A DNA stretch of 64,000 nucleotides, from the NCBI GenBank assembly GCA_951406725.2, contig OX597832.1:36518001-36582000 (forward strand), in the 5' to 3' direction. The notes beneath the pieces are model-generated. The model did not search any database. It saw only the letters and a list, made by a program, of their open reading frames with translations, and was not told where the DNA came from. The DNA comes from Octopus vulgaris (lineage: Eukaryota). Below are positions 16,570 to 62,788 of the stretch, in pieces (the stretch's first letter is position 1; every line of letters begins with the position of its first letter). The translations under genes were made by a program, and so were the position numbers.

Positions 16570-19098
16570 TGTGTATATTAATATGTTTTGGCCAGATGCA
16601 TCTGCTGTCATCTGGTTAGCAAAGAGCGAGAGAAAAATAAGGAGAGATAAGTGTTAATAATGTGAGGTAAAAAGAAAGTTATTATGCTAAGATGCTGTCA
16701 AGTGGTTAGTTCAAAAGGGAAACAGAGAGAGAGAGAGAGAGAGAGATTGTGTGTGTGTGTGTGTGTGTGTGCTAGTACTGAGAGGCAAAGGAAAAGGTAT
16801 TGCTGTTACATTGTGTGGTTACTTAGTTGGAGAAAGAACTAGAAAGTAGAGAGAGATATAAACATGTTAAATGCAGGGGCGTGTGGTATAGTTGAAGTGA
16901 GAGGTAAAGAGAGAGAGTGTCAACTGAAAGGAGCCCGGGAATGGAGAGCAGTTTCATGAATTTATATGTAGTATAACAGAATATTGTGACAGGCAATAAG
17001 AATAAAAGTTTAGTTGTTTTTTACAGGTTTTAATGTTCAACCATTTCTATACGTTGTAGATATTTTGTAAGTAAAAGACAGGTTGGTGGTAACTAAGCTT
17101 TCATATAGGTTTATGGTAATAACCTTGAAGGTAAAAGATAGGAAAATAAAAAAAGGGCAAAGAACAAAGAAGTAAAGAGAAAGTAAAAGAAAGGAAAATG
17201 GAAACTATAGGAATCCAACAGTTGTTGTTTCAAGTTAAATCAAAGTGAAATAACCTTAGTAAATAGCTGTTATTGTTACTTTTACCTTTTTTACGTGTAG
17301 CAGCCCAAAGGCTGAGTCCATGCTGGGGCACCGCAATTATTTAGGTTTTTTTTAAAAGTATAATATGATAGATAAGAAGGTACATATAGGAAGAGATTGA
17401 GTGACGGCCCCTTCAATATTGCCTGGGTGAATTTTTACATCTTTTAGAATCAAAGGTTTCAGAAAAATATACAGTTTCATCATACTATTTTCAAAATAAT
17501 CGTAGAATTTCCACGGGTCCTATTAGTAATCAAATATTATAATTTGCTACTAATTCACTGGTGAAGATGCGTGGCTCAGTGGTTAGAGTGTCACTCACAA
17601 TCATGAGGTAGTGACTTAGATTCCTGGACCTGACTCTGTGTTGTGGTCTTGAGTAACGTCACTGGTGCCAAGCTGTATGCATGGGCATCTGCTGGTCTTC
17701 CACAAACAACCTACCCAGACTTGTGCCTCAGAGGGTAACTTTCTAGGTGCAATCCCATGGTCATTCATGACCAAAACAGTTCTTTACCCTTTTTACTAAT
17801 TCACCAATATAGAATGTTTGAAGCATCTCTCATATTTGGTAAACTCCTTGCTACAATTCTCCACAAAGCCATTTTTTAAAAATTAATCTTCTACTGCACT
17901 TTCACTCTCTTTTTTTTTTTTAGCTGACAATTTTAATTATCAGAATGTAATTAAAATTTATATTTATAAATATTTTCATCTTTTTCAAAATGGTAATATT
18001 AATTATAATTCTTTACGTTTCTTTATTTTCATTTCTGGTTGCTATTTTTCTTGCTCCTGTACTTATGTATACATATGTATGCACACGCATACATACATAC
18101 ATACAGTATATATATGTATATATGCATACATATCTATAGATACAGGTACACATATATACATATATCTGTACACACACATATCTATATACATGTACATAGA
18201 TATATATATAACAATAAATTAAATATATATGTAGTGAAAGTGCATGGCTTAGTGGTTAGGGTGTTGCATTCATGATTGCAAGATAGTGGGTTCGATTCCC
18301 AAATTTTATGGGTGAGTGTATTAAATTATATAAGGCACTAAAAGAGAATGATTCTCCCCAGATACAACAGTATATATATATATGCGGGAGTGTGAATGTG
18401 TGTATATATATATACACACACACACATATGTATACATGTATAGTTATATAAGTGTCTAAATATATATGTATTATATTACGTGTATGCATATAAACACCTA
18501 TGTCTATATGAGGATGAAGTTACGTACATACACATATTTGTGTGTGTGTATGTGCATGTATGTATACATGTTTGTGTGTGTATGTATGTAGACATGAACG
18601 CAGGAGGTTTATGTCTATGTATTGTGAGAATATGGTTGTGTGTATTTTTTATCTTTTCTTTTTTTTCTTTTCCTATCTATTAGAGTAACTTCCCTTTTAT
18701 TCACCGGTCTTTCATAGCATCTGTTGCCATTAATAGCCGGCAAAAATGCATCGTAGCTCTTCGCTCTGACATTCGAAACTCCGAGTACTATAATGACAAC
18801 TTTTTACTGTTTGTTATAAATTATAATATATATAAATATCATCTATTTATCTAATATCAAAGTCTCATTTTTTTGTTGTTACTTTTTATTATCAAATTAC
18901 CTCCTGTACGCCTGGAGCATTCTCTCTAAGAGGCTAGTACAGACTGTATTGAATAGTTGCTATTAATCGGTTGAGGACTTTCTCCCACAGAAGAATCTAA
19001 TATAGATCCTTACATAATACTGTTCTATATTCAAGAGATGAGGAATTATGTACATTATTTACAATTGACAGATATTTGTCCTCATCTTGTTTGTTGTT

Positions 19099-19144
19099 AA
19101 CACAACGTTTTGGCTGATATACCCTCCAGCCTTCATCGGGTGTC
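19099..19144 (-). ncRNA. Minimal type I hammerhead ribozyme motif, family 1 (mutated: U4C, G12A)
   Basis: Reads GACAC-CCGAUGA-A-GGCUG(GAGGGUAUAU)CAGCC-AAAA-CG-U-U-GUGUU. Stems I and II pair, and stem III is the palindromic ACGU. Confidence 0.78.
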
Positions 19145-19425
19145 TTGGGGAAATTTCGAACCTGGGTTCTCATTCCTAAGGTATTTTTTGATGTTATTAT
19201 TCAGGTCACTGCCTGGAATCGAACTCGAAATCTTGGGGTTAGTAGTCTGCACTCTTAACCACTACGTCATATTCCCATGGGCATATGACCTAGTGATTAA
19301 GAGCGCGGGCTACTAATTCCAAGATTCCGAGTTCAATTCCAGGCAGTGACCTGAACAACAACAACAACAGCAACAACATCGAAAAATACCTTAAGAATGA
19401 GAATCCAGGTTCAAAATTTTCTCAA

Positions 19426-19471
19426 GACACCTGTTGAAGGGTGGAGGGTATATCGGCCGAAACGTAGTGTA
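19426..19471 (+). ncRNA. Minimal type I hammerhead ribozyme motif, family 1 (mutated: A6U)
   Basis: Reads GACAC-CUGUUGA-A-GGGUG(GAGGGUAUAU)CGGCC-GAAA-CG-U-A-GUGUA. Confidence 0.75.
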
Positions 19472-19530
19472 TAACAACAAGCAAGATGAGGACAAATATT
19501 TGTCACTTGTAAATAATGTAGATCCTTACA

Positions 19531-20805
19531 ATATTGATTACTTAATGAAAAACATACCATCCAAGGAACTATAGTCTAAAAAACTACTGGAGAAAATTAC
19601 AGATCTTATTAAACATATGAGATAAAAGGCCTTCCATTACAACACTGAAGAGACTATCACAGAGAAGATACACCATGAAATTAAATCAAAGAGATTTCCT
19701 CCCAAAATCAAGGACTCAGAAGACTTCGAAACAGATCTACTGAAGCTTATAAACAAAACCAAATTTCATAAGTCCTTTAACACTTTACAACAGAAACTGA
19801 AAAAAGACATTAAAAACTAAAAAAAAAAACAGCACTTTTTTCTGATAAAACCAAGAACTTATAACTTGTAGACAACAGCACATACTCACAACTCCTACAT
19901 AACAATGTTATTAGTAATTTGACTAAAGCTAGACTGCAAGTTTATAACGACATTAATAAAAAAGCTAGTATCATTGCCACTAGGTTTAAATAAAAAAAAA
20001 AAATAGAAATCCCCCCCAAAAAAGAAGGCCTTTATAACTATTAAGGACCGTAAAAAGTTCCTAACTAATCCTCAATGCAGACTAATGAACCCTGCAAAAT
20101 CAGAAATTGGTATAATTTGTAAGGAAATTTTAATAAAAATCAATGTTAAAGTTAGAAGGGCAACTGATTTAGTAGAATGGTTCAATAGTACAGAAGTTAA
20201 CTGATTTAAAGCAATTAGAAATAAGAATAAAGCAAGATTTACAGAATTTGATATTGTAGATTTCTGTGCATCTATTTCTAGAAAACTGCTAGATAAAGCC
20301 CTCACTTTTGCAAGCGATTTCACAGAGATTAGTGAACAAGATAAGGATATAATCCTCCATGCTAGAAAGACCTTACTCTTCAACGAGAACACAGAGTGGG
20401 TCAAGACAGCAGACTCAGTGGGTTCTTTCGATGTGAGCATGGGGTCATATGGAGCAGGCATATATGATCTCATTGGGCTGTTCCTGCTTGACACGTTAGG
20501 AAAAGCTTTTCCTGGTGTATATTTCACTATTTATAGGAACGATGCTCTAGCTTCAGCTAAGAAGACCAATGGACCAGTGCAAGATCACTTAAGGAAGGAT
20601 ATTATCCATCTTTTGAAAACGTTTGATCTTAGCATAATGATACCAATCTGATGGTTGTCAATTTCCTTGACATATTTCTAGATTTACAAAAGAAAATTTA
20701 CAAATCCTATGGAAAGCCCAACAATAGACTTAATTATATTAATGTAGGTTCCTGCCAACCCACCCCCGTAGTGTTTAAGAATTTAGTTAAGAATATTAGT
20801 AAGGA
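19531..20805 (+). pseudogene. Decayed Penelope-like element reverse transcriptase ORF; its first codons lie at 19002-19014, before the nested insertion
   Basis: Frameshifted translation gives DPYNIDYLMKNIP...LLEKITDLIKHMR*KAF, FITIKDRK.F..NPQCRLMNPAKSEIG, FTEFDIVDFCASISRKLLDKALTFA, FDVSMGSYGA, IYRNDAL (YRDD decayed), VNFLDIFLDL and KPNNRLNYINVGS. These are motifs of PLE RTs common in marine invertebrates. The ORF is 3'-truncated. Confidence 0.85.
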
Positions 20806-41733: not shown

Positions 41734-41864
41734 CACTTACAGCACCTAGGTTTCCCAAGCAGTCACCCATCTAAGTACTAACTAGGCTCAACATTGCTTA
41801 ACTTCGGTGATTGGATGAGAACCGGTGCTTTCAACGTGATTTTCAACGTGATATGGCCGTAAGC
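41734..41864 (-). pseudogene. RNA5S: 5S rRNA pseudogene, full length, with a 12-bp internal duplication
   Basis: The reverse complement reads GCTTACGGCCATATCACGTTGAAA...GCACCGGTTCTCATCCAATCACCGAAGTTAAGCAATGTTGAGCCTAGTTAGTACTTAGATGGGTGACTGCTTGGGAAACCTAGGTGCTGTAAG, the metazoan 5S pattern with many CpG-type transitions. TTTCAACGTGAT is duplicated at 41829-41852. Confidence 0.92.
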
Positions 41865-44747: not shown

Positions 44748-45143
44748 ATACGAGGAGGTTTTGATAAATCGAGTATAGCTGATCATGTATGGGAAAATGG
44801 AGACCAGCTCCCCGATGAGGGATGAAGTTAAAATAATAGACAGAGAACACCACTGGAAATTACGAAACCTAAAAGAAGCAGCACATATGCTAGGACACAA
44901 CAACCTCCTAAGCAGACCGAGTGCAGATGTGAGCAGCATATGGGAACCGGTATTAAGGAAGAATAGGAAAATATTAGATTTATAAGCCCTAAAATTCACT
45001 CCATAATTGCCCACGGGTATATGGCGCAGTTCGAAATTTCGCCCAAGACACCTGATGAAGGCTGGAGGGTATATCAGCCGAAACATGTTAACAACAAATA
45101 AGATGAGGATAAATATCCGTCAAGTGTGAATAATGTAAATAAT
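44748..45143 (+). mobile_element. 5'-truncated Penelope/Poseidon-type PLE: GIY-YIG endonuclease C-terminus plus internally deleted pLTR with hammerhead
   Basis: Reads RGGFDKSSIADHVWENGD..(frameshift)..DEVKIIDREHHWKLRNLKEAAHMLGHNNLLSR with stop at 44985. This is followed by CCCACGGGTATATGGCGCAG|TTCGAAATTT and the same hammerhead and tail as the 19-kb and 62-kb elements. Confidence 0.82.
45047..45089 (+). ncRNA. Hammerhead motif, family 1 (intact CUGAUGA and GAAA; short deletion at the cleavage site and stem I)
   Basis: Reads GACAC-CUGAUGA-A-GGCUG(GAGGGUAUAU)CAGCC-GAAA-CAUGUU. Confidence 0.75.
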
Positions 45144-46368
45144 GAATATCTGTCTGTGTTTGGACTGACCTTGCGCGGAGGTGACTCAGACTCCTGCTTC
45201 CATCGCTCTTCATACACATGCATTTCAACACATACACACCATTCTACACACACATGTACTTGTTTACTCACACACATACACATGCATACTCCCCTAAATA
45301 TACACACATTCACGTAATCTTCGATGCTTTCCCACCCATGCCACATGATCTCACCCATACAACTTCAGTCATGTTACTGATGTCTCCCTTTCCACCAACC
45401 ATTTCCTTCTGATCAATTCAACATGTGAAACCATTAATCCAGGCGTTTTTTTCTTTCTTTTCTCTGTTGTCTTCTTCCCTCATTCCTTTCTGTAGAAAAG
45501 CCTAGGCTCAAAAACATCAAAGACTCTTTCAATTTCCCTGAGCATCCAGCTAACAGACCTGCTTGGTGTTTCCTTACCTGTCCTTGTCTTCTGTTCTTTT
45601 GTTCTTTTTGCATAAGTTTGAACCATACACACTGACACACACACACACATCTCGTCCAACCCATGCTAGCATAGGAGACGGATGTTAAACGATGATGATG
45701 ATGATGATATATATTTAAATTTAAGAAGGGATGGTATTATTAAAATACCATCACATGTGGCAAGCGAGTTATCAGCCATACAGGCAAATTAATTAAATAT
45801 ATTCATACAATATAAAATAATGTATGTATGTGTGTGTGTGTGTGTGTGTATACATGAGCACCTGCATTGCTAAAAATAAAAGTCAAAAATACTTCTGTAT
45901 CACAGAATAGTCACAAATCTACTACAGGTATGGTTGTAAAAAATCCCAGTGAACATAAAAGAACCGTCTTCCCTCTGCTATTCCTGGTCAACTTGGATCT
46001 GGTTTCGAACTTGGCATCAAATAGTTACCTGTTTCTCTTCAGCCAAAGTCTGCCAGCTTCCCTTCTACTGAAATTTCCCCACACCATGCCTGCAAAAGTT
46101 TGTTTGAAGAAGTCACCAAATACAAGTGAAATGCATGGAATTATTTATAAATAATTATGAGAAGGAAAATATTATTAGGAAAATACCGCCACGTGTGGCA
46201 AGAGAGTTTATCAGCCGTACAGGCAAATTAATGGAATATATGTACTTTATATATATATACTTTATAAAAATATTTCAATTATACCGTAAATGGTCGTTTT
46301 ACATAGTGAACACTACTTGGTAAAATTAATTAATTAATTTTACCCTTTATTATTGACAATATATATAT

Positions 46369-61778: not shown

Positions 61779-61905
61779 GGAGCGTAAAAGGGATGTTATC
61801 CTGGCAGATACTGTATTATCTCCCAGATTGGTTTTGATGCCAGCTAATCACTGCGGTCCAATATATAGTACTCAAGCTTAGAGTTACTGGTACTGGTAAA
61901 CTTCA

Positions 61906-62325
61906 TTATTTGCAATGGACAGATAGTGTCCTCACTTTGTTATTAGCACAACTTTTTGGTTGATGTACTTTCCAGCTTTCATCTGGTGTTCTGATAGAAT
62001 TCCAAACCCAACCCTTTTTTTGACTAATGGAGTACTCTGTTCTCATTCCTAAGGTATTCTGTTTTGCAGTTGTTTTTTTTTTTCTGTTGATATTAAGTCC
62101 CAGGCAGGGACTTGGGAAATAATATCAACAGAAAAAAATAATGTCAGCAAAAAAAAAAACCTTAGGAATGAGAACAGAGTACCCCCATTATTCAAAGGCG
62201 TCCGAAATTACACCAGAACACCTGATGAATGCTGGAGAGCACATTAGCCAAAACATTGTGGTAACAACAAACAAGGTGAGGACATTGTAAATAATGTAAT
62301 AATTCCTCATCTCAAAAATATAGAT
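61906..62325. mobile_element. Second fold-back PLE-derived element (related subfamily) with a hammerhead motif in each arm, 12-bp TSD
   Basis: Arms are inverted around AAGTCCC-AGGCA-GGGACTT (62095-62113). TGGTAAACTTCA is repeated at 61894-61905 and 62326-62337. It shares CCTTAGGAATGAGAAC, the hammerhead and the AATTCCTCATCTC tail with 19015-19518. Confidence 0.85.
62217..62262 (+). ncRNA. Hammerhead motif, family 1 (CpG-decayed); a more degenerate inverted copy lies at 61945-61990
   Basis: Reads AACAC-CUGAUGA-A-UGCUG(GAGAGCACAU)UAGCC-AAAA-CA-U-U-GUGGU. Confidence 0.65.
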
Positions 62326-62788
62326 TGGTAAACTTCACTCATTGGGTACATGTATCTATAGTTAGTATATATATATATATATATATATATAGATATAATC
62401 GTCATCATTTAACACCCATGCTAGCATATATATGTATATATATATTGTGTGTTTTTGATATTTTGTAAGAGTCATAGAGGTTGGTGGGAAAAGTTGAAGT
62501 TATATTTGTAGGATGTAAACATTTATAATGTTTATAAAACTACAGATTGTATGGTTCATAGAATGGCCAGTTAAGGGCTGGAGATAAATAGCCAGACGTA
62601 TTATATAGATGACTTATCTTTGCTCTGTGTGTGTGTTAATCTATGACATAATCTGGCTACAGATGTGTTAGATGTCATTACCCATGTCACTATAGACTGC
62701 TATGCTCCATGAACTTGACCACTACATTATACAAAGTGCTGCTAGAACTATTGATATATACAACTATTGCTATATATGTGTGTATGTA

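Follow-up and report, generated by a model that had tools for sequence, protein, structure and literature searches.

The window, i.e. the whole 64,000-nt stretch of Octopus vulgaris DNA that was analysed, harbours at 19003–19530 an insertion consisting of two arms in head-to-head orientation (19015–19277 on the minus strand and 19278–19518 on the plus strand) that are 82% identical across 246 columns. It is enclosed by two copies of the 12-mer TAGATCCTTACA (19003–19014 and 19519–19530, plus strand), found in the window at these two places only; 1–2 nt at each edge are ambiguous because of microhomology with the element ends. The target was a decayed reverse transcriptase (RT)-coding repeat (18600–20800, plus strand, edges approximate) which is unrelated to the inserted family and shows no similarity to its alignment. 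The left 12-mer covers the start codon of this host repeat, and 11 of 14 other host copies read through the same site with a single TAGATCCTTACA. These represent the empty site, which means that the duplication was made on insertion. The two copies of about 250 nt, the exact 12-bp target site duplication (TSD) and the single tail of about 35 nt reported in the preliminary description are thus all present. The host repeat has 127 candidates genome-wide and possesses inverted 5′ copies of its own.

The left arm corresponds to the full terminal repeat with the long 3′ end. Its tRNA-derived module (19201–19276, minus strand) contains an A-box-like TGACGTAGTGG at 19269–19259 and the B box GAGTTCGATTCC at 19226–19215. 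An open stretch of 53 codons beginning with MRTQVRNFPKTPDEGW (19015–19173, minus strand) includes a minimal type I hammerhead with a mutated core (19099–19144, minus strand; CCGAUGA and AAAA) and ends with the tail (19015–19047, minus strand), which consists of coding triplets, is situated between the family's two preferred 3′ ends (cf. PMC11167929; papers are cited here for their accessible parts) and is found in this arm only. The right arm has the short 3′ end and comprises, on the plus strand, the head (19279–19354), (AAC)n at about 19355–19380, an ATG at 19397 and a hammerhead at 19426–19471 that reads CUGUUGA. Its A and B boxes are mutated. The fold-back axis between 19277 and 19278 lies in a short palindrome (19272–19283) that coincides with the 5′ edge of the module and with the end point of most family copies.

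Further repeats were seen in the same window. At 44950–45145 there is another family copy with the 3′ end of the ORF attached and an internal deletion in its pLTR, and 61895–62330 is an older, diverged fold-back of like architecture with the 12-nt direct repeat TGGTAAACTTCA at both ends, which may be a sister subfamily and of use for dating the tRNA module. At 41734–41864 (minus strand) a sequence resembling 5S rRNA (84 bits) contains a short internal duplication, and at 17561–17591 and 18234–18300 another tRNA-derived repeat is represented by its heads, which have A and B boxes.

The repeat unit and its autonomous element

Among the first 30 loci of the family, six share upstream DNA that translates as the end of a GIY-YIG endonuclease. 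A search with this endonuclease DNA yielded 30 loci (one being the query's own), and all of them run directly into the tRNA-like head, which starts about 28 nt past the stop codon within a gap of ~145 nt between ORF stop and ATG. In the near-full copies L206 and L216 the unit continues in frame into the ORF, and 46 exact matches to this junction exist genome-wide. Walking upstream leads to an RT (Pfam RVT_1, E 2e-10); the GIY-YIG motif, recognised in the translation and by comparison with homologues, is C-terminal in the same single ORF, and a DKG motif is also present. The nearest protein, P0001 from an element with RT and GIY-YIG, is 55% identical over the RT region, and its N-terminus shares the hammerhead-encoded peptide TPDDG..PKRCVNN. 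A multicopy Anolis protein of 836 aa with RT and GIY-YIG, taken to be Poseidon-like, is 35% identical. By similarity the element would be placed among the Penelope/Poseidon-type Penelope-like elements (PLEs); no other Poseidon-type family of the same genome was found among the loci collected.

The ORF begins inside the unit, and hammerhead and tail together encode approximately its first 53 codons. The body is coding and not protein-free as had been proposed: the left arm can still be read, with no stop codon, as the N-terminal part of the PLE protein. The overall layout is pLTR–ORF(RT, GIY-YIG)–pLTR, with each pLTR composed of the tRNA-like module, (AAY)n, the ORF start with the hammerhead, and the tail. 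Features of endonuclease-bearing (EN+) PLEs are found throughout: a single ORF with RT and C-terminal GIY-YIG, a pLTR that holds the ORF start and a minimal hammerhead, an inverted 5′ pLTR, a one-sided tail of 30–40 nt and a TSD. Almost certainly we are dealing with the pLTR of an autonomous element of the Penelope/Poseidon type and not with a separate protein-free one. Mobilisation by a PLE RT/GIY-YIG, as suggested earlier, agrees with the position of the unit behind the endonuclease end in every locus of that search and with the PLE-type hammerhead, tail and TSD. Many of the pLTR–ORF junction loci (L345–L374) show the order pLTR piece, 5′ piece of the ORF, pLTR with tail, an arrangement suggestive of template jumping in the course of reverse transcription.

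The family is abundant. In the 2.8-Gb genome two 30-mers of the tail have 3357 and 1042 exact matches and a 30-mer of the head has 879, with 0 for reversed controls. Five loci in forty 10-kb stretches taken at round coordinates (four microsatellite-only matches were left out) correspond to roughly 35,000 genome-wide (Poisson about 11,000–82,000). Arms diverge on average by 5–6% from the majority sequence, the two window arms by 6.0% and 9.6%.

The preliminary description had assumed a Pol III-transcribed SINE- or retrozyme-like unit without protein that is mobilised by a PLE. As an independent lineage it would have its own master copies and be mobilised in trans. Such a lineage has precedents in Sm-alpha (PMC2770079) and in PLE-derived retrozymes (bioRxiv 10.64898/2026.07.22.740005). 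Copies that start at the head outnumber ORF-bearing ones by about 3:1 among insertions that reach the head, and some short copies could re-transpose because they carry the promoter boxes. We nevertheless regard it as improbable, since the identical unit, head included, sits inside the autonomous element. Among 96 arms no alignment column (at least 20% frequency) separates the 60 head-start from the 35 ORF-attached ones, two subfamilies (positions 65/155/221) occur in both classes, and divergence is 5.2% versus 6.1%; some of the head-start arms had been retrieved with an arm of the window itself. Short copies thus have no private bases, so that within this sample the argument for an independent lineage of SINEs falls away. 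Moreover, no tandem array of whole units of the retrozyme type occurs among tail-anchored loci, and Anolis Poseidon RNA needs 172 nt of the ORF to be used (PMC11167929), approximately the maximum that a short copy contains. Of the SINE2 hallmarks, the tRNA-derived head with A and B boxes is present; a non-coding lineage of its own that shares merely the tail with its partner is not found.

Fold-back copies and the hammerhead

Inverted copies make up 34 of 55 tail-anchored insertions. Among 31 complete fold-backs, 29 have one short (~230–245) and one long (~264–271) end, the two 3′ ends being ~35 nt apart. Flanking direct repeats of at least 10 nt, with a mode of 12, are seen in 21 of these 31 and in 3.5% of 930 mismatched pairs. 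Such a tabulation had been proposed in the preliminary description. Fold-back, one-sided tail, TSD of ~12 nt and minimal hammerhead are known PLE traits. Inverted 5′-truncated copies and a one-sided tail of 30–40 bp are reported in PMC8557442. For Adineta, pLTRs including the first codons, TSDs of 8–10 bp and solo pLTRs are described in PMC3846280, where palindromic pLTR junctions were interpreted as self-priming. Two internal RT start sites explain the tail in vitro for Anolis Poseidon (PMC11167929).

The following route would account for these copies. The endonuclease of the element would nick AT-rich DNA, and the RT would prime within the RNA at one of two sites ~140–170 nt into the ORF (cf. 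PMC11167929). Priming near the RNA 5′ end would give a cDNA comprising the pLTR only, which terminates by run-off at the RNA start. Its end may then snap back on the short TGCCC/GGGCA palindrome, or switch template, to give the mirror arm. This second arm would begin at the other priming site, so that one end becomes long and the other short. Priming at the downstream pLTR would yield the rarer ORF-bearing, randomly truncated copies.

The proposed hammerhead consensus proved right for the family but not for the window. The consensus 46-mer is exact in 19 of 374 family loci, and a minimal type I descriptor accepts 20 of 60 copies of the family but neither of the window arms, both of which have changed cores (CCGAUGA and AAAA on the left, CUGUUGA on the right). 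Folded as monomers, the two hammerhead regions of the window give uninformative z-scores of –1.3 and 0.1. Rfam, another of the suggested checks, returned neither a hammerhead nor a tRNA match in the window, in 18990–19545, in the better copy L163 or in seven control loci. Of 79 related PLE loci taken from metagenomes, 20 have the same motif; in 14 it lies 94–327 nt past the ORF end. There was no antisense match in these 79 loci and none in five shuffles. As to stem covariation, also asked for, 88% of the cells of the stems pair, with 41 double changes (reached in 0 of 500 shuffles). The count was made on 10 of those 20 matches, a single intact copy of the family and both arms of the window, and is partly circular because the matches had been selected by a pairing descriptor.

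In its details the family motif matches the minimal PLE-type hammerhead (PMC4209133). Both have the extra base between 9 and 10.1, the G10.1–C11.1 pair, a palindromic CG in place of helix III and a short helix I; there is no difference in kind apart from the mutated cores of both window copies. Cleavage would be expected as a dimer or with the help of protein. The layout does not need the hammerhead, and in Anolis Poseidon a protein-assisted hammerhead is likewise not needed for insertion (PMC11167929).

The tRNA-derived module and the probable start of the RNA

The unusual feature of this family, judged from sequence comparison, is that a tRNA-derived module with A and B boxes opens the pLTR of a protein-coding PLE. 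Eight heads aligned with the tRNAs of the genome score 58–64, the best of 200 shuffles of each reaching 47–51; best matches are mostly tRNA-Arg in a reference set of only 35 tRNA sequences with few isotypes. By comparison the 3′ UTRs of 37 related PLEs (two of 39 were dropped as too short) score 33–46 and six own copies 51–66, with one control 3′ UTR (L294) just above the maximum of its own 15 shuffles. A descriptor of the two boxes finds 12 of 30 own loci and 0 of 79 other PLE loci. ARAGORN reported no tRNA in the window and none in the 60 scanned of the 79 control loci. As neither it nor Rfam calls the module a tRNA, the term tRNA-like rests on the boxes and on the alignment to genomic tRNAs. 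The tRNA-derived head with Pol III-type boxes, as noted before, is supported; in the right arm the boxes are mutated. As to a free-standing donor SINE composed of head and AAY tail, six of 30 head-anchored loci lack a PLE body after the microsatellite (one of these is ORF-attached) and may be deletions or inverted arms.

Most copies end where the module begins. The tail-anchored insertions were chosen irrespective of their 5′ side (five of 60 were dropped as second arms or for duplicated flanks), and 26 of the 55 reach the module start, where 19 stop, 16 of them within –5 to +5. The number of 19 is conservative, since two insertions scored as ending at the microsatellite have dropped partner records that reach the head. 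Only six of 32 insertions stop inside the 72-nt module, and the seven that pass its edge extend for 24–650 nt. Correspondingly, 22 of 30 head-anchored loci end at –7 to +6 of the edge, and non-inverted copies likewise end there. The edge lies about 7–14 nt upstream of the A box, the distance at which Pol III starts transcripts of tRNAs and SINEs. In one pLTR–ORF junction locus (L354) the sequence extends from the start of the head into the ORF, as expected of a transcript beginning at the module; five of 30 such loci contain sequence from upstream of it, so that read-through or tandem templates have also served.

In three RNA runs (one study of a related species) the depth rises 3.1–4.5-fold at the very base of the edge, about 280–350 loose ends per run read there as inverted head, and the same two 3′ ends as in genomic copies are found. 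These runs are unstranded and their signal follows genomic copy number; it is that of genomic copies within host transcripts and not of a promoter of the element. Reads show no pile-up of beginnings or ends on the pLTR stretch, an absence that carries no information in unstranded, fragmented libraries, from which neither a start nor a cleavage site can be read.

The module probably sets the RNA start through Pol III, as the boxes and their distance from the edge suggest. The pile-up alone does not point to this polymerase, because Adineta Penelopes with TATA/Inr-like motifs also have fixed palindromic 5′ ends (PMC3846280). Alternatively, the element would be the same but its module a passive relic, left by an ancient SINE or a tRNA pseudogene that was caught in the pLTR together with an (AAY)n tail, and the pile-up would then result from a chance Pol II start or from fold-back driven by the hairpin of the palindrome. 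We rate this as possible rather than probable. It gains from the Inr/DPE-type promoter of the D. virilis Penelope (PMC2377424), from the self-priming assumed in Adineta (PMC3846280) and from the short inverted head at the edge of many family copies. On the other hand, the edge and the tRNA 5′ end are only a few bases apart in the ~145-nt stop–ATG gap, and copies without inversion terminate there as well. About ten other short palindromes of L206 (14 overlapping rows) show no pile-up, as seen in only seven edge-passing copies, and the palindrome may itself be the frozen snap-back of an RNA 5′ end.

Pol III might even make the entire coding RNA of ~2.7 kb. The ORF would then have shed T-run terminators and the element would be its own SINE, a speculative and rather doubtful extension. 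The sense strand of the ORF speaks for a role of Pol III in general. Over ~2.3 kb there is no run of TTTT or longer common to the copies (0.27 per kb, at most two copies per place), and 63.8 kb in 60 copy segments contain 17 T runs versus 128 in base shuffles and 71 in a Markov null. Control ORFs of like T content (n = 32, after 17 of 79 loci with fewer than 1500 coding bases had been dropped) have 3.0 per kb, and one of them has none. The signal is modest, since synonymous shuffling predicts 3.6 runs versus one seen (P 0.06; P 0.009 for none) and G runs are also below the Markov null (19 versus 72). Furthermore L277 (2501–4406), a 48%-identical PLE without the tRNA module, also has an ORF free of TTTT (P 0.01, codon shuffling), which fits a passive module. 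Its 3′ UTR is T-rich, and against that reading the 3′ UTRs of L277, L266 and L268 are rich in T runs and that of the own family has none. For comparison, 23 of 30 tRNA loci of the genome have at least four T within 30 nt downstream. RNA made by Pol III is uncapped and serves poorly as a messenger, and this counts against the Pol III reading.

Taken together, we consider the following reading reasonably probable: an abundant retrotransposon of the Penelope/Poseidon type, itself protein-coding, has left here an old and decayed copy of its pLTR in fold-back form, and the tRNA-derived module of this pLTR likely marks the start of the RNA, with Pol III as the predicted polymerase.

Comparison with known systems

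The combination of tRNA head, hammerhead and PLE tail had been put forward as possibly undescribed. This holds in part only: tRNA head and hammerhead together are known from Sm-alpha (PMC2770079), but a pLTR headed by a tRNA was not found in the published literature searched (Repbase, Dfam, supplements and most subscription papers were outside this search) and does not appear in the accessible parts of PMC13282606, PMC8967140, PMC4758252, PMC4494074 and PMC5786205. The family may already be catalogued, e.g. in Repbase or Dfam. A likely annotation trap is corrected: what would pass for tRNA-derived SINEs at tens of thousands of loci are terminal repeats of a PLE. The large number of copies provides an in vivo map of the two RT priming sites and of the apparent RNA 5′ end, which bears on the way in which inverted pLTRs and tails of PLEs arise. 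Should Pol III drive the element, this would break the usual split in which autonomous retroelements are transcribed by Pol II and SINEs by Pol III (PMC10886601, PMC5786205), and it would show how a PLE can give rise directly to an element of the SINE or Sm-alpha kind. If it also makes the coding RNA, tens of thousands of short run-off copies would be by-products.

With the Penelope/Poseidon PLEs (PMC11167929, PMC3846280, PMC2377424) the element shares an ORF of ~810–850 aa with RT and C-terminal GIY-YIG, a pLTR that overlaps the ORF start and contains the hammerhead, 3′ ends 30–40 nt apart, an inverted 5′ pLTR with a palindrome at the inverted junction, and solo pLTRs. The TSD has a mode of 12 nt here in contrast with 8–10 nt in Adineta Penelope (PMC3846280). 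The pLTR opens with the tRNA-derived module and (AAY)n instead of the TATA/Inr/DPE-type motifs of described members, and compared with these the sense strand is short of T runs.

Sm-alpha and Sj-alpha of schistosomes (PMC2770079) also combine a hammerhead with sequence derived from a tRNA within a single short repeat of high copy number. They are SINE-like, and the accessible part of that paper names no autonomous parent of the same sequence, whereas here the unit is the pLTR of such an element. Short hammerhead sequences related to pLTRs are further shared with non-LTR retrozymes (reviewed in PMC7761336; their origin from PLEs is argued in bioRxiv 10.64898/2026.07.22.740005) and with non-autonomous Chlamys PLEs (PMC8557442). 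Retrozymes form head-to-tail tandem arrays with two active ribozymes; the family copies are solo or head-to-head without a separate lineage, and in the window both cores are mutated.

The TRIMp3 elements Cassandra, Helenus and Ajax (PMC10886601) likewise have a terminal repeat with a Pol III promoter derived from a small RNA, which is thought to stem from the insertion of a SINE. These are non-autonomous LTR elements, in contrast with the repeat described here, which belongs to a protein-coding PLE.
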